From Promethearchaeota archaeon (GTDB taxonomy: Archaea > Asgardarchaeota > Lokiarchaeia > Sigyniarchaeales > SOKP01), in assembly GCA_048939015.1 (NCBI GenBank), contig JBHLPW010000045.1, forward strand, positions 1 to 44,226: a stretch of DNA of 44,226 bases, written 5' to 3'. The notes under the pieces were generated by a model that worked only from the letters and a program-made list of their open reading frames with translations, was not told where the DNA came from and did no database searches. Positions 10,075 to 29,917 of this stretch are shown in pieces (the stretch's first letter is position 1; every line of letters starts with the position of its first letter). The translations under genes and the position numbers were made by a program.

Positions 10075-11781
10075 TTACCTAACAGATTTTATAGCTACCA
10101 ACTTCTTTTTTAGACCAATTTTCTGTTTCTCTCTAGATTGTTTCTCTCGTACTTTTCCATTTTCTGCTCCAGATTTTGCTAATTCATTCTTTAATTCTTC
10201 TGCCAGTACACCCAATTTATTTGCTGTAGCTGTTATTTCTTCCATTGAAGCAGTTTGTTGTTCTGATGAGGCACTAATACCTTCAAGTGCCCGTGAATTT
10301 TCCTCACCAGCTGCAGTTGTGGATTCAATGTCTTGAGTTATAGCTGCAATTAGTTCAACTGTAGATTGAATGCGGGTTGTAATATCCTTTACTTGTGCAC
10401 CTGTATCATCAGTAGCATTTTTAGATTCTTCAGCAAGTTTTCGAACCTCATCTGCCACTACAGCAAAGCCTCTTCCATATTCACCAGCTCTTCCTGCTTC
10501 AATACTGGCATTAAGTGCCAATAAATTCGTTTGATCTGAAATACTTGTTATTAGATCCATTATTCTATTGATATCTGTAGTTGATTTCATAATTTCATGG
10601 GAGAGATCATTGATATTACTTGACATTTTACTGATTTCTACAAGTGAATTAACTTGACTCTGAGTATTCATGGAAACCTCCTGAGTAGTAGAGGCGATTT
10701 CCTCTGAAGCAGCATTAACTTCACTCGCACTTGCAGCTAACTCTGTGGCCATATTTGAGACATTCACACTTGCATTCGATCCTGCTTTTAATATATTTTC
10801 CATGTTGTTAGTAACACCTGTGATACTTCTTACAGTTGGAACCGCTACAGCTATACCAAGCGCAATTGCTATTACTATAACAGCAACTATTACGATATAT
10901 GAAGTAGTTATTGCAGATCGCGCTGCTGCCTTATTTGCTTCAATATGAGTATCTACTTCCTGATCTAGAGCATTTAAATCTGCCACTAATTCATCAGCGG
11001 TGACATTTATTGTGTTGATATCTGCTTCCAGTTTGTCATAGTCATCAAAAACTCCGTGTCCGGGCTCAATTGCTAAATTTGAAAAGTTCACATGGTGAGT
11101 TTCTATCTCATCAAGAACATTTTCAATAGTCGTATTTCCAGTATAAAATGTAGCAATGTTATTAATACAACTATCGAACAAAGTTAAAGATGCGTTAAAC
11201 TCATTACGTGTTTCTTCATCTTGATTAGAAATATACTCATAAACGAAGAGCATTTGTTCGGCTATACACATTTTCATAAGTGAAGCATTTAGGTCCATTA
11301 CTGGATCTTCAATATATCCTAGTAAGATATTAATTTCTTCATCGATATGTTCATGTAATTCAAAGATCATATCTACATGCCCTAAAATTTCATCTTGATG
11401 AGCAAGTATTCCTTCAGTTCCATTAACGATGAATCCCATTATCTCTTCATGATGCTCTTCTAATTCATCGATTTCTAAGGTATACTCTGGAACCAATTGT
11501 TTTAATTCATCAGCATGTTCATCAAATTCTTCAGTTGCAGATATAATTTCAGTTCTTTGATGACTAGTATCTCCTCCTAAGTATTCCCACATTTCTCTCA
11601 AAGCATAATCCATATGAAATTTCATATCATTCATGATTTCCATTGCAATAGAATCTACATTAGCTAAATCAGTGTATCTTTGATCTAAATTATTAAGTTG
11701 AAAGAAGCTAACTCCTCCTAGCACGCATGTAAACGTAATTAAACATGCAAATCCTATTGTCATTCTTCTTCCTATATTCAT
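10075..11781 (-). CDS. Methyl-accepting chemotaxis-like receptor MCP1 (2 TM, helical extracellular domain, no obvious HAMP)
   Basis: [40 protein letters not shown] hairpin tip. Confidence 0.95.
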
Positions 11782-11925
11782 TTTTTTTAAATCCCTTCCT
11801 AAATATCACTGTTTATTGTAACATATAATTCACTTAACGAAAGGTTATAATTGCAAATCCCTTAATATTTACAATAAGTGAATTTTGATACAAAAAACTT
11901 CTTAACTTAGTAGTTTTAGCACAAT

Positions 11926-12033
11926 TATTTAAACTTTTTTTATTCAAACATTGTTCTTGAACGCGATAGTATGTAAAAAACTGCAGAAATTTATTCTTTT
12001 TTATGTAAATCAATATTTTTTTGTACAAAAAAA
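11926..12033 (-). promoter_or_regulatory. MCP1 promoter block (BRE/TATA plus upstream motifs)
   Basis: TATTTAAACTTTTTTTATTCAAA (11926-11948) is identical to 16921-16943. It is followed by ATGTAAA twice and the palindrome T7-GTAC-A7 (12016-12033). Confidence 0.75.
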
Positions 12034-12298
12034 CAATTAATTACAGTATTTAATAATTAGACGATAAAATTAGAGCATCTTAAAAATATTGGAAATAGTT
12101 TTTTTTACTGAATAAAACAGTAATTCAATAAATAATCTATTTTCTGTAAGCATAATTGGAATCTTCAAATTATCTTAAAAAAAATGTATAAATAGAAGTA
12201 ATATCTTTAACTTGTTGAAGTGTCTTCATTTGAGATTAAGATCTTAAATATAATTCATAAATAATTAACCAAAGCATTTTAGGAGGAGTTTTCACCTA

Positions 12299-13627
12299 AT
12301 GAATAAGCCAACCTTAAATTTATACAATAAATTTGCCAATTTGAAGGAAAAATTTATTGAAAACAGAATTGTAATTATTGCAATTATTATTTTTTTGATT
12401 TATTGGATTTTAGAGTCAATTATGGATACTTTTTTATTTCAATCCAATAAAAATTTTATAGAAAACCTATTTTTCTTAGAGATCCATGAAAGTTGGCATC
12501 GTTTTCTTATTTTTGGATTTTTCATTTTTATTGGGTTATATTCTCAAAATATAATTACAAGGAGGAAAAAAGCTGAACTAAAAATCATTGAATTAGCAAG
12601 ATATACATCTGAAAATCCAAATCCTATTTTGAGAATATCTAAAAATCAAATTGCATATATTAATGAAGTTGGTCAAGAACTATTTAATCTAAGTGAGAAT
12701 AGTGAAACCCCAAATTTTTTGCGAGAGAAAATAACAGATTCAATGAGTAAAGAGAAAAGAGAATTAGTTGAAGTAAAGTTTAAAGATCGATTTTATTCAT
12801 TTGTTATCTCACCAAATAAGGAAGCAGATTACACTAATATTTATGGAATGGATATTACAGAACGTAAAAAAGCAGAAGATTTAATTTTAGAAGAATATCA
12901 AAAATTATCAGAACTTAATCAAATGAGAAAAGATTTAATAATAAGAGTTTCTCATGAGTTAAAGACTCCTTTGAATGCAATTTATGGTGCTTCACAGAGA
13001 TTATTCGAGTATCATGAAAATCATCCCCATTCACATCTCAACAAATATGTAGAAATCATAAACAGAGGTGGGAATAGACTAAAAAATCTTATATCCAATA
13101 TAATTGATGCCTCAAAAATAGACTATAATAAAATGGAATTGAAAATGAAAAAAGAAAATTTGGTTGAACTTATTAAGGAATGTATTGAAGATTTGATTTT
13201 TTTTGCTAATGAAAGAAAAGTCTTTTTAAATATTAATCTCCCTCAAGAATTATTCATTAAAATAGATAAATTTAGGATTGAACAGGTTTTCACTAATATC
13301 CTATCAAATGCCATAAAAAATACTCCATCAGGGGGTTTGATTTATATTAGATTATTAGAAATGGATAAATCATTTGACATTTCTATAAAAGACACAGGGA
13401 TTGGCCTAACAAACGAAGAAATGAAGAAATTGTTTAAAAGATTTGGAAAAATTGAAAGATATGGAAGATCGTTGGGTGTAGATATTGAAGGTTCTGGATT
13501 AGGTTTATATATTTCCAATGAAATAGTCAAATTGCATAACGGTGAAATTCTGGTAAAATCAGAAGGGAGAAATAAAGGAGCTGAATTTACAATTAGATTG
13601 TATAAGAATCACTCAAGTAATAATTAA
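12299..13627 (+). CDS. Membrane-anchored class I sensor histidine kinase (2 TM, PAS-like, HisKA, HATPase)
   Basis: SHELKTPL H-box, NILSNAIK, DTGIG, EGSGLGL; SD AGGAGG. Confidence 0.95.
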   Translation: MNKPTLNLYNKFANLKEKFIENRIVIIAIIIFLIYWILESIMDTFLFQSNKNFIENLFFLEIHESWHRFLIFGFFIFIGLYSQNIITRRKKAELKIIELARYTSENPNPILRISKNQIAYINEVGQELFNLSENSETPNFLREKITDSMSKEKRELVEVKFKDRFYSFVISPNKEADYTNIYGMDITERKKAEDLILEEYQKLSELNQMRKDLIIRVSHELKTPLNAIYGASQRLFEYHENHPHSHLNKYVEIINRGGNRLKNLISNIIDASKIDYNKMELKMKKENLVELIKECIEDLIFFANERKVFLNINLPQELFIKIDKFRIEQVFTNILSNAIKNTPSGGLIYIRLLEMDKSFDISIKDTGIGLTNEEMKKLFKRFGKIERYGRSLGVDIEGSGLGLYISNEIVKLHNGEILVKSEGRNKGAEFTIRLYKNHSSNN

Positions 13628-13659
13628 TAATCAAAATCTAATAAAAATAGAGACTTTGT

Positions 13660-14508
13660 TCATTTTAAATGATTAAATATTGTTTCGAATTTAGAAAAAT
13701 CAAAAGGTTTCAAAAAGTAACCATTGGCTCCTGTTTCATTCATTTTTTCTTCGACTTCAGAATGTGGAACAGCTGTTATAAAAAAAATAGGCACTTTTTT
13801 CAGAGTATTCGATAACCTCATTTTTTTACATATTTCATATCCATCAATATCTGGAAGGAGTATATCAAGTAAAACTAATTTAGGAACATACCTGTACATT
13901 TCTTCAATCGCTTCTAAGCCAGATGTAAGATATTTACAGACATATCCTTTACCTCTAAAATAGTCAGTTAGTAAATTAATCGTTAAGAAATCATCTTCAA
14001 CAATCAGAATATCATACAAATTATTTTCGACATCAGATTTTTCTAAATCTTTGATAATTTTTTCTTCTAAAATTAGACTTTGATCATATATTGTTTTCAA
14101 TTTTAAAGCTATGTCCCAATCTAACTTATCTTTATAATTTTCCAACAAAATCTGTGAATACCCTTTAATTATTGTAAGAGATTCTTTTAAATCATGGGAT
14201 ATCTGAGAAATTGCTTTAAAGGAACGAGATTTCTCTTTTATCTCTATAAAAGAATTAACAGCTTCCCTTACAAGTTTTGAAATCGTTGGATAATCATAAT
14301 TTTTAATAAAATCTTGCCATTTTGATTTAGTTTCTTCAGAGACTAAAATCATTATTCTTTCTTTATTTTTTTCATAAATTTTTTCACCTTTTTGCCATTT
14401 TTTAAATCCCTCTGTTATCCGATCTCTCCAAATAGCAAATTTTCCTGTCTCTTTCTCATATTGTTCCATCTCTTTAGTTTTTTTCAAATTTCCTGAGATA
14501 AGATCCAC
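13660..14508 (-). CDS. Response regulator RR1: N-terminal micro-domain, RHH-like, HisKA (DHp only), REC
   Basis: RIMILVSEETKSKW...TISKLVREAV (RHH pattern); SHDLKESL (H-box); ILIVEDD, LLDILLP, FITA, LKPF (REC). Confidence 0.85.
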   Translation of the reverse strand: MDLISGNLKKTKEMEQYEKETGKFAIWRDRITEGFKKWQKGEKIYEKNKERIMILVSEETKSKWQDFIKNYDYPTISKLVREAVNSFIEIKEKSRSFKAISQISHDLKESLTIIKGYSQILLENYKDKLDWDIALKLKTIYDQSLILEEKIIKDLEKSDVENNLYDILIVEDDFLTINLLTDYFRGKGYVCKYLTSGLEAIEEMYRYVPKLVLLDILLPDIDGYEICKKMRLSNTLKKVPIFFITAVPHSEVEEKMNETGANGYFLKPFDFSKFETIFNHLK

Positions 14509-14811
14509 CCTATTATAATAATTGAGAACTTTTTTTAATTTAAACCTTTTAATTTGTTATTTTATGAATAAAATATCAAATCCTAAAGATTTGTTAACTT
14601 TTATCAATTGAATATAAAATATTTTATTTAGAAATTTTATATTAACGGAAATAAATTTTTATTCAAAAAAAATTTCTTTTTGAATAATATAAAATCACTC
14701 ATATTAAAAATTATTACAATTTCTATGAACCTATCTAAATCCATTTTAGATGATTGATCAATTATCTATACCCTTAAAATGTGATTCTATTTCTAAAAAA
14801 ATTAAAATTAA

Positions 14812-14843
14812 AAGGGGGTTATCTTTAAAAGATAAGCCCCCTT
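14812..14843. repeat. GC-cored inverted repeat (hairpin) between MCP2 and RR1
   Basis: AAGGGGG-TTATCTTT-A-AAAGATAA-G-CCCCCTT: 15 bp stem with one bulge. Confidence 0.7.
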
Positions 14844-14989
14844 AGGGATTTAAAAATTTAAGGGATTTGCTAATAAATTATATTATCATAATATTTTAAA
14901 CTAAAAAATTAAAAAGTTAAGTGGAATTTAATCCACAATTTAATTCTCATTATATTTTTTTAAAGGGGATATATAGATTTACACTTATA

Positions 14990-16750
14990 TCATTCTTCTA
15001 ATGATTCAGCCTGTCGAATAGTCTTTAAGACTGCTAGTTTCTTCTTAAATCCAGATTTCTCCTGCTTTTTGGGTAATTCAGTCGTACTTATTTTCTTTGT
15101 TTTTCCATTATCTCCTCCAGATTTTGCTAATTCATTCTTTAACTCTTCTGCTAGCACTCCTAGTTTATTAGCTGTAGCTGTAATTTCTTCCATTGAGGCA
15201 GTCTGTTGTTCTGAAGAAGCACTAATACCTTCAAGTGCTCGCGAATTCTCTTCTCCCGCTGCCGTTGTAGATTCAATGTCTTGAGTTATAGCCGCAATTA
15301 ATTCAACTGTAGATTGAATGCGGGTTGTTATATCCTTTACTTGTGATCCTGTATCATCAGTAGCATTTTTAGATTCTTCAGCAAGCTTTCGAACCTCGTC
15401 TGCCACTACAGCAAAGCCTCGACCGTGCTCACCTGCCCTACCTGCCTCAATACTTGCGTTTAAAGCTAATAAATTAGTTTGATCTGATATGCTTGTTATA
15501 AGATCCATGATTCTATTAATATCTGTGGTTGATTTCATGATTTCATGCGATAGATCATTGATATTACTTGACATTTTACTGATTTCTACAAGCGAATTAA
15601 CTTGACTTTGAGTATTCATGGAGACCTCTTGGGTTGTTGAAGCAATTTCTTCAGATGCTGCATTTACTTCACTAGCACTCGCCGCTAACTCTGTCGCCAT
15701 ATTTGAGACATTCACACTTGCATTTGATCCTGCTTTTAAAACATTCTCCATATTTTTTGTAACTCTTACAATCCCTCTAACCGTAGGAACTGCAATTACT
15801 ATCCCTAGAACTACTGCAATTACTATCACTGAAATGATAATTATATATGATGTAAAAATTGTTGATTGCGCATTAGCTTTATTTAATTCTATATGTTCAT
15901 CGACTTCATAATTCAAAACATCTAATTCTCCAACCACTCCTTCGAAGGTTGCATTAATCTCACCAATTTCGACTAATAAAGTATCATAATCTCCAAAAAT
16001 CCCGTGTTCTGTACCCTCTGAGTAGTCAGAAAAATTAACATGATGAAGTTCTATAAGATCCAGCAAATTTTCTATTGTGCTATTTCCAGAGTAAAAAGTT
16101 CTTATAGTATCAATACACGTATCAAATTCAACATTTGCAGCATCAAATTCATTAACAGTATCAGGATCTGGATTTGTGATATATTCATATACAAAAAGCA
16201 TCTGTTCAACAAGATACATTTTCATTATTGAAGCATTTAAATCCATCACCGGATCATTAACAAGTGCTAATAGTGTGTCTATATCGTCATCAACCTCTTC
16301 GTGTAATTCAAAAACGATATCGAGATGTTCTAAGATTTCATCTTGATGAGCCAAAATTCCTTCAGTATCATTTACAATATGACTTATAATAAAATCATGA
16401 TCAGCTATAATTTCTTCTATTTCAATAGAAAATTCAGGGAGTAAGTCTGCTAGTTCCTCTGCATGCAAATCAAATTCAGTTGCACGTGCATTTATTTCAT
16501 CCTGTTGATGAGAAACATCTCCCTCTAAATATTCCCACATTTCACGTAATACATAATCTATATCATATTGCAGATCCATCATTAATTCCATTGCAATTGA
16601 ATCTACATTAGCCAAATCTTTATATTCTTGATCTAAACTGTTTAATTGAGTGAAACTAATAACACCTAAAGCAACAGAAATGATCATAAGGCATGCAAAT
16701 CCAAATGTCATTCTTCTTCCAATATTCATATTTTTTCTCCTTATTTTCAT
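14990..16750 (-). CDS. Methyl-accepting chemotaxis-like receptor MCP2 (paralog of MCP1; start may be MNIGRR at 16729)
   Basis: Same hairpin-tip motif; collinear with MCP1 over its whole length. Confidence 0.95.
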
Positions 16751-17229: not shown

Positions 17230-19137
17230 TTGCCACTAAATCAAAACCAAAATATTTCTGATTTATTGGAAAAACATAGTAAAAAGCAAATATCATTAGA
17301 CGATATTATTACGAAATATGTTAAACCTGGAAGTCGGATTTTTATCGATTCTGGTTGTGCTGAACCAATCGATCTTACTAAAAAATTAATTGAACTTGGT
17401 TTAAACCTTCCAGATATAGAGATATTACACTTTCTCAGTCTAAGTGATTTGGATTATTATGAAACTGCCGGTAGTATAGAAGATCTATTTAGGCATAATG
17501 CATTTTTCATTGGAAAATCACTTCGTAAATATGTTGAACTTGGTCAGGCAGATTATTCTCCAATGTTACTTTCGGAGATTCCGAGATTATTTAAATCTGG
17601 AATGATGCATTTAGATACTGCGTTAATTCAAGTGAGCTTACCTGATCAATATGGATTCTGTAGCTATGGGATTAATGTAGATATCGCAAAGCCAATAGCA
17701 GAATCTGCTGAATATGTTATAGCTGAAATCAATCCTAAAATGCCACGTACTTTGGGAGATTCTTTTATTCACATAAATGACTTAGATGCATTTGTTTTAA
17801 GTGATCATGATATTATTGAATTTAGTTATAGTGAACTCGATGAGGTTTCCATTAAAATAGCTAAGTTTGCCGCTTCTTTAATTGAAGATGAATCAACTAT
17901 TCAAATGGGAATCGGAGAAATTCCTAACGCAGTTACTAAGGAGTTGGTAGAAAAAAGGGATTTGGGGGTGCATAGTGAAGTATTTTCAGATGGAATTGTA
18001 GATCTTGTAGAAAAAGGTGTAATCACATGTAAAAAAAAGACACTTCACAAAGATAAGATTATATGCTCATTTGTTATGGGTTCTAAAAGATTATATGATT
18101 TTGTTGATGACAATCCTATGGTCGAATTTCATCCATGTGATTATACAAATGATCCATATATTATTAGCAAAAATAAGAAACAAGTAGCTATAAATGCCGC
18201 TTTAAGTGTTGATCTAACAGGTCAAGTGAATTCAGATTCTTTAGGTCACAGATTTTACAGTGGAATCGGTGGACAAGTTGATTTTGTAAGAGGGGCAGGA
18301 AGATCTATCGACGGAAAGCCTATTATGACTTTACCTTCTACAGCAACATTAAAAGATGGTACTGTGGTGTCAAGAATAGTTCCTTTCCTTCAACCTGGCT
18401 CTGGAGTAGTAATAACAAGAGGTGATATCCATTATGTAGTTACAGAATGGGGTATTGCTTATCTTTATGGAAAAAGTATTCGAGAAAGAGTACTTGAAAT
18501 GATAAATATAGCTCATCCTGATTTTCGGGAAGAATTATTAGACCATGCTAAAAAGTGGAAGTATGTATATTCAGACCAAAAGTTGCCCATTTCTATAGAT
18601 GGAAGGATAAGTATATATCCTGACAAATATGAAACTATATTAAAGCTTGAAAATGGAAAAACAATTAAAATCCGTCCTATAAAACCCACAGATGAGAGAT
18701 TAATCCAAGAACTCCATTATTCTTTGGATGATAAGGATAGATATCTAAGATTTTTCACTCCTGTCAAAGATTTCCGTCATAAGAAGATACAACCACTTGT
18801 AACAATTGATTATACTAATGATATGATTTTAGTGGCAGAAGTTCATGAAAAAGCAGAAGAACAAATTGTAGCTCTTGGAGCATTTTTTAAAACTATTCAA
18901 CCTTCTATTGGAGAGTTAGCTTTTGTTGTTCACACTGATTGGAGAGGACTTGGAATTACCAAGTTTTTATTAAACTATTTAGTCCAGATTGGAAAAGAAT
19001 TAAATTTCAGAACTTTTACAGGCTCTATTCTACTTGAAAATAAACCGATGCTTCACATTATTAACAACTCTGGATATTCACTTAATTTGAAAAGAATTGA
19101 AGGAAATGTTACAATTTTTGCTTTTGATCTTACCTAA
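17230..19137 (+). CDS. Acetyl-CoA hydrolase/4-hydroxybutyrate CoA-transferase fused to a C-terminal GNAT acetyltransferase
   Basis: IQMGIGEIPNAV, DLGVHSE (catalytic Glu), SGIGGQVDFVRGA, IAHPDFRE; GNAT part IRPIKPTD, YLRFF, ELAFVVHTDWRGLGI. Confidence 0.92.
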   Translation: MPLNQNQNISDLLEKHSKKQISLDDIITKYVKPGSRIFIDSGCAEPIDLTKKLIELGLNLPDIEILHFLSLSDLDYYETAGSIEDLFRHNAFFIGKSLRKYVELGQADYSPMLLSEIPRLFKSGMMHLDTALIQVSLPDQYGFCSYGINVDIAKPIAESAEYVIAEINPKMPRTLGDSFIHINDLDAFVLSDHDIIEFSYSELDEVSIKIAKFAASLIEDESTIQMGIGEIPNAVTKELVEKRDLGVHSEVFSDGIVDLVEKGVITCKKKTLHKDKIICSFVMGSKRLYDFVDDNPMVEFHPCDYTNDPYIISKNKKQVAINAALSVDLTGQVNSDSLGHRFYSGIGGQVDFVRGAGRSIDGKPIMTLPSTATLKDGTVVSRIVPFLQPGSGVVITRGDIHYVVTEWGIAYLYGKSIRERVLEMINIAHPDFREELLDHAKKWKYVYSDQKLPISIDGRISIYPDKYETILKLENGKTIKIRPIKPTDERLIQELHYSLDDKDRYLRFFTPVKDFRHKKIQPLVTIDYTNDMILVAEVHEKAEEQIVALGAFFKTIQPSIGELAFVVHTDWRGLGITKFLLNYLVQIGKELNFRTFTGSILLENKPMLHIINNSGYSLNLKRIEGNVTIFAFDLT

Positions 19138-25320: not shown

Positions 25321-27231
25321 CTATTTAAATAATCTTACTGTAAATAGAGCGCCCTTATGCCGTCCTTCTGATTCGACGAGGATCTGACCACCATGTAAAT
25401 CAATAATTTCTTTTGAGATATATAATCCCAGACCAGATCCTTCAATATCAACCCCTAAATCCATTCCATAGTGTTCAATTTTACCAAATTTCTCAAATAA
25501 CAGCCCTTTTTCTTCTTTAGTTATACCTATTCCCATATCCTTTATTTTAATATCAACTTGATTTTGATTTTCAAGAAGATCTACATAAATCGAACCATTT
25601 TTGGGAGTATTTTTTATCGCATTTGATAAAATATTAGTAATCACTTGTTGAAGTCTAATTTTATCAACATTCAAACAGGTTTCTTCAGGCAATTCTAAGT
25701 GTATCGTTTGATTACGATTATTAGCGAAATAATTCATGTCCTCAACACATTCTCTCACTATTTTGATAATATTTTCATTGCTTAATCTCAAATCCAATTT
25801 TCCAGTTTCTATTCTGGAAGCATCAATTAGATTTTCTACTAGTTTTTTTAATCTTAAAGCCCCCCTATGAAAAATTTCTATGAAACTTAATACATCATCA
25901 TCAATTTTCTCAATAAGATGTTTTAGAAGTATCTGAGATGCCCCATACATTGAAGTTAAAGGTGTTTTTAACTCATGAGAGACTCGTGTTATTATGTCTT
26001 TTCTCATCTTATTGAGTTCTAGTAGTTTTTTATTTTCTTCAAGAATAAGCCTTTGTGCTTCAATTTTTTCAGAAATATCTAATGTTGCCACTAAATCTGC
26101 CAGCATTCCTTCAAAAGTTATTGTTTTAGAAATTATTTCCAACCAAATTGCTTTTCCTGTTTTTTTAATAACCCTGAATTGAAGATTTGCTAAAACTCCA
26201 TCGGTACCATAATATTTTTCTTCTGCCAAGATTTGGACCATTTCTCTATCTTCTGGATGGATAATCTGAAAGAATTCTCTTGGTTTCCATCTTAGAATCT
26301 CATCAGATGAAAAGCCTAAAGTATCTGAGAATTGTTTATTAACATATTTAAAGGTAAAATCCTGTAAAATAGCAATTCCAATGAATGATTGTTCTGTAAT
26401 CGTTCTGAATTTTTCTTCAGATTCTATTAAATTTTGTTCAGAAAGTTTTCGATCGGTTACATTTTCAACTATAACTTGAACAGAATTCACATCTCTTAAC
26501 TTTATCGGAGATACATGCAAGAGAGTCCAAATTAAACTTCCATCCTTCTTTATCAATTGAATTTCCTTTGGAACAGGAGTTTCTCCATTGTATAATTTCT
26601 TAAAGCCATACATAATCAAGGGAAGGTATTCTTGAGGAACAATATTTAGTTCAAGGAAATTTTTTCCTTTCATTTCCTCCTTTTCATATCCAAAAATTTC
26701 TTTAACATAGGAATTGCATTCTAAAAAAGTACCATTTAAGTCCATTAGGGCTATTGCAAAAGGAGAATGTTCGAACAGACAGCGAAATTTTTCTTCTGAT
26801 TCCTTTAATTTTAATTCAGAATTCTTCCTTGAGGTAATATCGTCAAATACAGTAATGAATTCCCCTTTTCTAGGGGAAATTACTGAAATTTTGAAATGAG
26901 ATTCTATTGGCGGAAAATATGTTTCAAAAGTAACTGATTCCTGTGTTTCTGCTACTTTTGAATATATTTCTATATATGGCGCTTTATCGAGATTATATAC
27001 TTTTGTTGCAGTTTGATTTATTACATTTTCTTTTTTAATATTCAGAATTTTTTCGTATTGGGGATTTACATCTGTGATAATGTAATTTACTGGATTTCCT
27101 AAAATGTCATAGACAACTTTATGGTAAGCAATTCCACTAGTTGAATTATTAAATAAAACTTGAAAGGTCGTTTCAAGATAATTCTTTTTGGTTTTTTGTT
27201 CTAATTCTTGCATTAAAAATACCTTAACCAT
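25321..27231 (-). CDS. Cytoplasmic multi-PAS class I histidine kinase (3 PAS, HisKA, HATPase)
   Basis: ESEEKFR linkers, IIHPEDRE, SHELKTPL, NILSNAIK, EGSGLGL; kinase core closely similar to 12299-13627. Confidence 0.95.
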   Translation of the reverse strand: MVKVFLMQELEQKTKKNYLETTFQVLFNNSTSGIAYHKVVYDILGNPVNYIITDVNPQYEKILNIKKENVINQTATKVYNLDKAPYIEIYSKVAETQESVTFETYFPPIESHFKISVISPRKGEFITVFDDITSRKNSELKLKESEEKFRCLFEHSPFAIALMDLNGTFLECNSYVKEIFGYEKEEMKGKNFLELNIVPQEYLPLIMYGFKKLYNGETPVPKEIQLIKKDGSLIWTLLHVSPIKLRDVNSVQVIVENVTDRKLSEQNLIESEEKFRTITEQSFIGIAILQDFTFKYVNKQFSDTLGFSSDEILRWKPREFFQIIHPEDREMVQILAEEKYYGTDGVLANLQFRVIKKTGKAIWLEIISKTITFEGMLADLVATLDISEKIEAQRLILEENKKLLELNKMRKDIITRVSHELKTPLTSMYGASQILLKHLIEKIDDDVLSFIEIFHRGALRLKKLVENLIDASRIETGKLDLRLSNENIIKIVRECVEDMNYFANNRNQTIHLELPEETCLNVDKIRLQQVITNILSNAIKNTPKNGSIYVDLLENQNQVDIKIKDMGIGITKEEKGLLFEKFGKIEHYGMDLGVDIEGSGLGLYISKEIIDLHGGQILVESEGRHKGALFTVRLFK

Positions 27232-27710
27232 TATCCCGAATATCTTAGAAAAGTTACAATTATATTTTCCTACTCGCCAATAATTTTAGAGAATCTAATT
27301 TAACTCAAAAATACTATATGATCGGTTAAATAATTTAAATTTCTGTTGTACCGAGAATTAAAATCGTTAATATATTTTATAATAATTAAAAAAAAAATAT
27401 CAATTTTATATAATCTTACATAACTTTACAAAATTTTGATATTTAAATCTATTTCTTTTTTGATTTTTCTATTAAGCCGTAAGGTTGATTTCATAAATAT
27501 TTCTTGAAAAATCCCACTTTTTAAAGCATTAATTTGATGTATTTTTTTGTACATAATATCTCAAAAAATGGTGTAAAAATAAATGTTTATATACAAAAAT
27601 TTTTATTAATTATAAAAAAGTTCTATTAAAGTTATTTTATGAATATTGGCTGAAAGGGATTTAACTTTTATAGATTACTTTAGAAAAAACGTTTTGGAAG
27701 TGATTAATAA

Positions 27711-28025
27711 ATGCCTAGTTTAGAAATAAATGAATTAACAGTTTTAATAATTTTAGCTATTCCAGTAGCTTTTTCTCCATACCTTTTAAAGAAGAGGAGG
27801 GACATCATGAAGTGGTTTCCGGGGTATTATTGCATTTTTATAACTTTTCTATCTACAAACTTAGAAGCAGCAATTTTACCCGATACTTTCAACTTCATGG
27901 AGCACTTTTTTGCTATGATGGCAGGGATTTTATTCTGTGTTGCAGCATTTTATGAATACTACAGTAAGGTTATAAAAGGGAAAGAAATCAAACTTAATAT
28001 CAAAAAAAAGTCGGTGAGTAATTAA
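27711..28025 (+). CDS. Small 3-TM membrane protein, putative partner of MCP3
   Basis: Three hydrophobic segments; its TAA directly abuts the MCP3 ATG in the same frame. Confidence 0.75.
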   Translation: MPSLEINELTVLIILAIPVAFSPYLLKKRRDIMKWFPGYYCIFITFLSTNLEAAILPDTFNFMEHFFAMMAGILFCVAAFYEYYSKVIKGKEIKLNIKKKSVSN

Positions 28026-28856
28026 ATGCTATTACAAATAGATCCAGCTGATCTCCTTGATGGAGGCTTTAATTTTGTTGGTATGATTTTCTTTTTTTTA
28101 GCAATAATAGTAACTGTTTTTATATACTTTAAAAAAAGAACACCAACTAATGCAATTTATGTATTTTCTGTCATTGGAGGTTTTCTATATACTATGGGAA
28201 ATCTTCTTGACAAGTGGCAACTTTGGAATCCAGATTATGCAGATGCTTTTGGAGAAAGTTTTGCATTGTTTATGGGAACGGTAGCATTATTTTTTGCCGT
28301 AATTCCTTTCTTAGAACAAAAGTTTGAAAAATCAGCTAATAACATGAAAGGAATTATAGAAGCTGCTTCAAATGCGAGTATTAATGTCGCAAATATTGCA
28401 AATGAATTGGCTGCAAGTGCGAGTGAAGTTAATGCTGCTTCAGAGGAAATTGCCTCTTCAACACAAGAAATGACTAATAATACTGAGGACGTTATTCGTT
28501 CCACTAATGAGATTAATAATGTAATGAGTATCATTACTAACATTTCTGATCAAACTAACTTACTAGCTTTGAACGCCAGTATTGAAGCAGGAAGAGCTGG
28601 TGAGCAAGGAAGAGGCTTTGCTGTAGTTGCAGATGAAGTTAGAAAATTAGCAGAAGAATCAAAAGATGCTGTAAGAAACACAAATGATAAAATTAAAGAT
28701 GTAATTAATAAGATTAATTCCTCATTTAGTGCAATGGAAGGAATAAGTGCTTCTGCAGAACAGCAGACCGCATCAATGGAAGAAGTTACATCTACTGCCC
28801 ATAAGCTAGGGACCTTAGCAGAAGACTTAAAGAGTTCTTTAATATTGGATGAATAA
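28026..28856 (+). CDS. Short methyl-accepting chemotaxis-like receptor MCP3 (3 TM, shortened signalling domain)
   Basis: [40 protein letters not shown]; T-tract downstream near 28890. Confidence 0.93.
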
Positions 28857-29023
28857 TTCAATTATTAGGAGTTAATATTTTTAACCTAATTTTTTTTTTC
28901 TTCTTTTTAATAACAATTTTATTCATTTTTCAAATAGTATTAAATTTTAGGTAAAAAAAAAAATATAAATATGTAAAACCTAATAAATATCTATAAAAAG
29001 TACTAATTATAATCTAATTAAAG

Positions 29024-29917
29024 GTGGGCAATATCCCTAATGATTTAAAAAAAACTAAAGAAATGGAAGACTTTGAGATAAAAACCGGGAAGAGGGCTAT
29101 TTGGCGTGGAAGTGTTACAGAAAGCTTTAAAAAATGGCAGAAAGGTAAAAATGATTTCGATGTAGATAAGGAAAGAATTTCATTATATGTATCGAAAGAT
29201 ATTAAAGAAGAGTGGCTGAATTTTGCTAACAGTAATGATTATTCTACTTTATCAAAATTAATTAGAGAAGCTTTGAAATTCTTTATTGAATATAAGTCTA
29301 AAATTACAATTAAAGATAAAAAAGTTGATATAGATCTTCTTTCTATTTTATCACATGATTTAAAGGAACCTTTAACTTCTATTAAAGGGTATTTACAGCT
29401 TATTATTGAATCCTATGGAAAAAATATAGAAGATAAGTTATTATCAATAATAAAAAATGTTTTAAGTCAATGTTCAGTCCTAGAAAACAAAATAGTTAAC
29501 TATTTAGATACATTTGAAACAAATAGAGAAGTTGAAATCGAGGAGATGGTTAAATATGATTTATTATTAATTGAGGATGATATCGAAACGGTCAATCTTC
29601 TATCCAGTTATTTCGAATCATTAGGAATCTCATGTAAAGGCGTTTCAAGTGGTTTTAAAGGGCTAAAGGAACTGAAAAAAAGACAACCCAAACTTATTTT
29701 ACTTGATATTATTTTACCAGATATTAATGGTTATGAGTTTTTGAAGAGAGTTAAAACGGATAGTAAGTTAAAGAAGATCCCGGTATTTTTCTTAACAGCA
29801 ATTCCTCGAGTAGAGATAGAAGAAAAAATTCAAGATTTAGGTGCCACCGGTGCAATTTTAAAACCATTTAATTTATCTGATTTTGAAGTTATTCAGAAAT
29901 ATCTAACTGATACATAA
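29024..29917 (+). CDS. Response regulator RR2, same architecture as RR1
   Basis: KTGKRAIWRGSVTESFKKW; RISLYVS...TLSKLIREAL; SHDLKEPL; LIEDD, LLDIILP, FLTA, LKPF. Confidence 0.85.
   Translation: MGNIPNDLKKTKEMEDFEIKTGKRAIWRGSVTESFKKWQKGKNDFDVDKERISLYVSKDIKEEWLNFANSNDYSTLSKLIREALKFFIEYKSKITIKDKKVDIDLLSILSHDLKEPLTSIKGYLQLIIESYGKNIEDKLLSIIKNVLSQCSVLENKIVNYLDTFETNREVEIEEMVKYDLLLIEDDIETVNLLSSYFESLGISCKGVSSGFKGLKELKKRQPKLILLDIILPDINGYEFLKRVKTDSKLKKIPVFFLTAIPRVEIEEKIQDLGATGAILKPFNLSDFEVIQKYLTDT

Follow-up and report, generated by a model that had tools for sequence, protein, structure and literature searches.

The window, as we call the 44,226-nucleotide stretch of Promethearchaeota archaeon DNA analyzed here, contains two paralogous genes for response regulators built from a ribbon-helix-helix (RHH) domain, a DHp hairpin, and a receiver (REC) domain. 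Paralog 1 occupies positions 13660-14508 of the reverse strand and encodes 282 amino acids from a GTG at 14508; its database copy (P0001) starts at the TTG at 14487 and has 275 amino acids. Paralog 2 lies on the forward strand (29024-29917) and encodes 297 amino acids, and the two products align over their full length with 45% identity (E = 2e-88). Both genes sit among signaling genes. A HisKA+HATPase histidine kinase (12299-13627, forward strand) is arranged tail-to-tail with paralog 1 across a gap of 32 nt, and an MCP gene (4HB + MCPsignal; 14990-16750, reverse strand) is found directly upstream of paralog 1 on the same strand, 481 nt away. Paralog 2 has no tail-to-tail kinase; the gene directly upstream of it, on the same strand and separated by 167 nt, encodes a short MCPsignal protein (28026-28856, forward strand), and its nearest kinase, with PAS-HisKA-HATPase architecture, is encoded on the opposite strand 1.8 kb upstream (25321-27231, reverse strand). 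Beyond the first MCP gene, an acetyl-CoA hydrolase/transferase gene with a fused C-terminal GNAT acetyltransferase domain was observed at 17230-19137 of the forward strand.

Domain limits were taken from a 38-sequence alignment and an AF2 model (pLDDT 82; all AF2 structures here are monomer predictions), and the domain coordinates and the His and Asp codons were verified by translation. In paralog 1, these sources delimit a mini-module (residues ~8-45), a strand-helix-helix segment (46-97), a helical hairpin (100-124 and 131-154), and a receiver (167-281). The first-pass annotation, made from the DNA letters, had read the proteins as a mini-module, an RHH domain, an ATPase-less DHp, and REC, and this reading agrees with our Pfam, AF2, profile, and fold searches. 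At the two junctions flanking the hairpin (residues 94-98 and 157-162), the pLDDT of the model falls below 50 and the alignment contains indels, a combination that favors domains on tethers, acting by docking or by pairing of receivers, rather than a rigid relay through helices.

The RHH domain spans 14218-14373 in paralog 1 (reverse strand; residues 46-97, with the recognition strand KERIMILVS) and, together with a linker, 29159-29332 in paralog 2 (forward strand; KERISLYVS). Searched singly against Pfam, the paralog 1 segment yielded no match; among 20 family members, RHH_1 was the most frequent Pfam match (6/20, best E = 4.4e-4), and a profile search of the PDB with this segment returned seven weak matches, four of them RHH proteins, with RHH at E values of 0.5-0.9. 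As a Foldseek query, the full-length model retrieved receiver domains alone, ordinary receivers being the structural neighbors of that domain, and we therefore modeled residues 46-97 separately (pLDDT 89). With this model, the top Foldseek matches had TM scores of 0.65-0.77 and included CopA, PrpA, MazE, PutA, ParD, NikR, and CopG. With VIA-align, ~40 of the top 42 matches were RHH proteins, among them TacA, NikR, PutA, Arc, and omega, at Z scores of 5-6.8 and rmsd values of 1.0-2.5 Å over 43-51 of the 52 residues. What had been a guess is thus borne out by a model that retrieves RHH proteins almost exclusively and by RHH_1 matches in several members. Conserved features of the fold include R51 (134/143 members), a hydrophobic I52/L54/V56 pattern, and S77 and R81 at helix B.

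The N-terminal mini-module (14374-14487, reverse strand, residues 8-45 of paralog 1; 29045-29158, forward strand, in paralog 2) comprises ~35 amino acids, is modeled in paralog 1 as helix, β-hairpin, and helix, and carries the motif [FY]E.ETGK.AIW.G..T.GF..W. The "micro-domain" suspected at this position is real and conserved in the alignment. Relatives found with an N-terminal query indicate that it is a mobile repeat, occurring between one and five times per protein in Asgard proteins that are otherwise unrelated (P0184, P0202, P0217, P0223, P0181, P0206, P0224). Among the contexts observed were its joining to an Arf-like GTPase and REC in one protein, five copies within a single protein, two copies at the cytoplasmic tail of a NosD/β-helix membrane protein, and one copy at the C terminus of a phage Mu F-like head protein. 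Neither PDB profiles nor the ESM Atlas gave a match, or in the latter case a usable match, to the module; one repeat protein showed a weak match to the RNase H1 N-terminal domain (E = 0.003). Four of the genome's paralogs (C51:10479-11198, C41:2845-3579, C101:7578-8357, and C112:56770-57546) begin directly with the RHH domain, and so the mini-module, on the evidence of these genes, is an optional add-on.

The receiver is encoded at 13666-14010 of the reverse strand in paralog 1 (acceptor Asp215, codon 13864-13866) and at 29564-29905 of the forward strand in paralog 2 (Asp228, codon 29705-29707), with matches to Pfam PF00072 at E = 4.8e-21 and 7.3e-19, respectively. As had been noted from the translations, all catalytic residues are kept in both paralogs: alignment and translation show E171-D172-D173, D215, T245, and K267-P268 intact in paralog 1, and paralog 2 has the corresponding residues, D228 among them. 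Across 143 members, these residues vary little or not at all, and 280 of 280 family sequences retain the acceptor Asp.

Between RHH domain and receiver lies a HisKA-type DHp hairpin (14029-14217, reverse strand, in paralog 1; 29333-29521, forward strand, in paralog 2). Against single sequences, Pfam HisKA fell short of its gathering score of 26.9 in paralog 1 (22.9 bits) and exceeded it in paralog 2 (31.0 bits); a 20-sequence profile matched the DHp of Thermotoga HK853 over both helices (E = 5.4e-10), with the family His aligned to the kinase His. Both paralogs keep this H-box His within SHDLKE, as the first-pass annotation had stated (His105, codon 14194-14196; His111, codon 29354-29356), and in both it is followed by an acidic residue at H+1, forming an H-D dyad. 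No ATPase stands behind the hairpin: Pfam finds no HATPase in either paralog, and the AF2 model passes from a single helical hairpin to REC. The His is separated from the first receiver strand by 62 residues in paralog 1 and 70 in paralog 2, and this spacing, together with the single modeled hairpin, upholds the earlier argument that there is too little room between H-box and REC for a HATPase. A pseudo-CA α/β domain is likewise absent, REC beginning 12-20 residues behind the second DHp helix. The H+4 position, occupied by Thr or Asn in the HisKA phosphatase motif, is Glu in 141 of 143 members and Thr in HK853. The DHp positions that bear on covariation with REC are almost invariant, and the covariation signal is dominated by the three clades described below.

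More than 1000 full-length relatives were found, and every source name given is Asgard; species-representative genomes of Loki-, Thor-, Hod-, Odin-, and Hermod-type lineages hold 441 copies, and among 1.84 billion representative proteins the N-terminal half is limited to 109 clusters. The full-length matches, all Asgard, include LCGC14_1224520 (69% identity); for P0013, a protein from marine sediment (LCGC14), the identity to paralog 1 is 69%. This genome alone carries 10 family copies. Of 80 fetched loci, 61 contain a same-strand tandem pair whose upstream and downstream members fall into two old clades, A and B, with the label changing just three times on the tree; a third, divergent clade, C, holds both window genes. 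The A/B pair occupies a conserved position, oriented divergently to a TFB gene that is its direct neighbor in 34 loci; genomes of the Loki, Thor, Hod, Odin, and Hermod types share this arrangement, as does the genome of the window. Directly downstream of the pair, 46 loci (L038:1638-2126 and 45 others) encode a 162-aa protein that matches a JAB domain weakly (E = 0.0013), and a DUF2110 gene comes next on the opposite strand. Genomes of the same genus offered no true ortholog of paralog 1; what matched best in them, at 58% identity, was the A/B pair. Paralog 2 shares its KERISLYVS ribbon strand with the A/B clades, whereas that of paralog 1 differs; the DNA targets of the two paralogs, to judge from this difference, are probably not the same.

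Gene neighborhoods distinguish the clades. A convergent HisKA+HATPase kinase within 200 nt accompanies 11 of 20 clade C genes vs 0 of 123 A/B genes. Among ~18 metagenomic loci encoding relatives of paralog 1 (48-89% identity), a convergent kinase is immediately downstream in 16, and an MCP gene is directly upstream on the same strand in 10; the window repeats this triad with its MCP gene at 14990-16750, paralog 1, and the kinase at 12299-13627. Gene order alone leads us to presume that this kinase is the cognate partner of paralog 1. Adjacency to MCP genes was not general among loci from the genome collection, but common among the closer metagenomic relatives; in the window's own genome, which has 21 MCP genes, 6 of the 10 regulator paralogs have one no more than 2 kb away. 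Clusters of MCP, class I kinase, and RHH-DHp-REC genes were observed repeatedly in this genome, in the window at 10075-16750 and 25321-29917 and on contigs C51, C99, C101, and C112. The genome's only CheW and CheA-like genes reside elsewhere, on contig C108, and the MCPs therefore need not signal through the RHH-DHp-REC regulators.

In the divergent region between TFB and the A/B pair, a heptamer, TTGTTAT/ATAACAA (extended form tTTGTTATAA), is abundant. Across 41 such loci among L002-L078, which represent related genomes and not independent samples, these regions contain 83 copies in 25.5 kb (3.26 per kb), compared with 25.7 ± 4.8 in shuffles and with 0.35 per kb in intergenic DNA elsewhere in the same loci. 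At least two heptamers occur in 34 of the 41 loci, often bracketing TATA-like boxes, and in the window's own genome (L083:957-1497, contig C43) an inverted pair is located 60-108 nt upstream of the TFB start. We regard this repeat as a candidate operator of the TFB-A/B region.

The window itself yielded less. TTGTTAT is not enriched there (22 found vs 18 expected), and a k-mer comparison of the regions upstream of paralog 1 and 16 relatives revealed none enriched and no operator. A palindrome, ATTCAAAAA-N7-TTTTTGAAT, at 14661-14685, ~165 nt upstream of paralog 1, was considered as an operator and set aside as uninformative, being identical only in the 89%-identical ortholog locus L123 and absent from more distant orthologs. 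Between the MCP gene and paralog 1, ~150 nt past the MCP stop codon, a hairpin rich in G+C (GGGGGCTTATC...GATAACCCCC) and the T run behind it resemble a terminator (~14808-14842, reverse strand), and paralog 1 therefore probably has its own promoter.

We favor, with somewhat better than even confidence, an interpretation in which both genes specify RHH transcription factors that are switched by phosphorylation and belong to a response-regulator family specific to Asgard archaea. Each would be an ordinary response regulator fed by a kinase, with the DHp serving as a dimer scaffold. An RHH monomer is unable to bind DNA. The DHp hairpins would form a dimeric four-helix bundle that joins two chains, allowing their N-terminal strands to pair into a DNA-reading ribbon. 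The neighboring kinase (12299-13627 for paralog 1) would phosphorylate the receiver Asp directly, and the phosphorylated receiver, on its flexible 12-20 residue linker, might then change its docking or pair with other receivers, with an effect on DNA affinity or on cooperativity between dimers. Likely targets would be the promoters of the regulator itself and of the adjacent MCP gene. The DHp His would be an inherited kinase feature on which the core switch does not depend, perhaps adding a side reaction such as back-transfer, a phosphate sink, or receiver docking.

The principal alternative follows the first-pass annotation, which had proposed a single-chain phosphorelay transcription factor: the DHp His would be an obligatory carrier of the kind found in Spo0B and ChpT, it would take phosphate from a receiver, its own or a partner's, and hand it on, and the His/Asp phosphorylation state would set DNA binding. 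Several features speak for such a relay. The DHp closely matches that of a working kinase, HK853, and the window copies keep the H-D dyad, so that phosphorylation of the His, and with it a single-chain relay, may occur in these two proteins. Among unique family sequences, the His is retained in 253 of 281, including 100% of the ~160 A/B-clade sequences, and its conservation in these clades and in the window proteins, read from the alignment, is greater than a pure scaffold requires. The receiver is tethered where a CA domain would sit, such that His-Asp contact appears geometrically possible in the model, and the tandem A/B pairs (61/80 loci) could heterodimerize and relay phosphate between partners.

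The pattern of His loss argues against this relay as a family-wide property. In the remaining 28 sequences, another residue stands in place of the His (Tyr in 16, Arg in 7, Leu in 2, Gln in 2, and Lys in 1), through at least ~11 independent events on the tree, all within clade C, the clade of both window genes; one protein 74% identical to paralog 1 (P0007) has Tyr in this position. The remaining H-box and REC are kept in the His-less clade C sequences. Kinase adjacency could be checked for them at three examinable loci, and a kinase is present at each: L115 and L119 keep the convergent, tail-to-tail kinase, and at L122 the next gene downstream encodes a kinase in the same direction. With the His lost this often and the receiver Asp retained, the replacement pattern indicates that the lineage of the window genes can do without the His, and an obligatory internal phosphorelay is accordingly unlikely on these sequence grounds. 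Conservation of the His across homologs, which the first-pass annotation had made one yardstick for its proposal, thus does not hold for the family, although both window copies keep the residue.

Other observations point the same way. The proteins have neither an ATPase nor a pseudo-CA domain; the acidic H+1 residue, Asp in the window proteins, is missing from most A/B members, which have Ala or Thr; and a complete HisKA+HATPase kinase lying tail-to-tail with paralog 1 could donate phosphate directly to the Asp, making an internal His step unnecessary. Taken with the repeated losses, the adjoining kinase leaves the relay unsupported as a family property, and we consider it improbable as the basis of the switch.

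Still less probable, in our judgment, is a role chiefly in modulating the neighboring kinase, with the ATPase-less DHp heterodimerizing with the kinase's DHp or docking phospho-receivers and the RHH domain being secondary. Both modes have precedents: RetS heterodimerizes with GacS, and DivL, with Tyr in place of the His, is a docking platform for phospho-receivers. By analogy with DivL, the prevalence of Tyr among the His replacements could be read in this sense, and paralog 1 is both tightly tail-to-tail with a HisKA kinase and equipped with an H-box closely resembling that of its neighbor. Against this, the DNA-contact features of the RHH domain are conserved family-wide, including in A/B members with no kinase nearby. 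We hold it very improbable that the RHH domain, in place of binding DNA, mediates protein interactions or acts like an antitoxin module, which would make the protein an adaptor outside transcription, working for instance with the MCP/Che machinery: MCP genes adjoin 6/10 paralogs, a CheA/CheW set exists elsewhere in the genome, and no operator was found in the window, but the domain matches DNA-binding RHH domains over its full length, the Arg on the ribbon strand and the Ser/Arg at the helix B cap are conserved, and the related A/B pair lies beside a strongly enriched repeated heptamer.

The kinase-fed, DHp-scaffolded transcription factor thus remains the reading we prefer. A bolder reading, which we think unlikely, would see in these proteins a histidine-kinase core run backwards, in which receiver and DHp His exchange phosphoryl groups, buffering or relaying phosphate from a partner kinase while the protein reads DNA. 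On this reading, A/B heterodimers would bind TTGTTAT repeats at the promoter of a TFB paralog, and the clade C copies, those in the window among them, would place the expression of individual chemoreceptors under dedicated kinases. If true, it would amount to two-component control of a basal transcription factor in Asgard archaea.

DNA-binding response regulators are rare in archaea, and the Asgard lineage comprises the closest prokaryotic relatives of eukaryotes. The RHH-DHp-REC family is one of a small number of candidates for connecting two-component sensing with transcription in that lineage. Its architecture is itself not a discovery, and the caution in the first-pass annotation that it might already have been published was justified: Galperin, Makarova, Wolf, and Koonin (2018; PMC5847659) named RHH-HisKA-REC in Lokiarchaeum (GC14_75), in one sentence and without analysis. 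Our literature search for this architecture found no other treatment of it; a 2023 paper lists one such protein merely as HisKA/REC, beside a PAS kinase. The proteins named by Galperin et al. share domain order and lineage with the window paralogs, the homology being established via the marine-sediment protein. Their entry does not cover the mini-module, the three clades, the kinase/MCP gene order, or the loss of the His, and the added value of the present analysis is the family structure, the kinase/MCP wiring, and the His-loss pattern. A one-line census entry becomes a set of testable statements about which kinases and regulators form pairs, the dispensability in nature of the stalk His, and where operators may lie.

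Several better-known systems invite comparison. With class I histidine kinases (HK853 DHp; PDB 2c2a, 3dge, 4jas), they share the HisKA-type two-helix DHp and its H-box; unlike HK853, they have no CA/HATPase domain, carry the receiver directly after the second helix, and have Glu instead of Thr at H+4, and relative to class I kinases, their input and output ends are reversed, with the DNA-binding domain at the N terminus. Spo0B and ChpT likewise possess a His-bearing helical hairpin that derives from kinases but has no kinase activity; they differ in having a pseudo-CA domain and an essential His and in lacking both REC and a DNA-binding domain, whereas here the His is dispensable in many relatives. 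NikR, PutA, AmrZ, Arc, and CopG have an N-terminal RHH domain of the same fold (Z 5.4-6.6), with output controlled by the C-terminal domain; in the window proteins, the regulatory part is a DHp and a receiver, responsive to phosphorylation, in place of the metal-binding ACT domain, enzyme, or nothing found in proteins of the NikR/PutA type. The archaeal "HisKA, no HATPase" and REC-(PAS)n-HisKA proteins (Galperin et al. 2018, PMC5847659) also have an ATPase-less HisKA with a conserved His, and those authors ask whether such modules act as phosphoacceptor or phosphatase; they differ from the window paralogs in having sensor domains, no DNA-binding domain, and another domain order.
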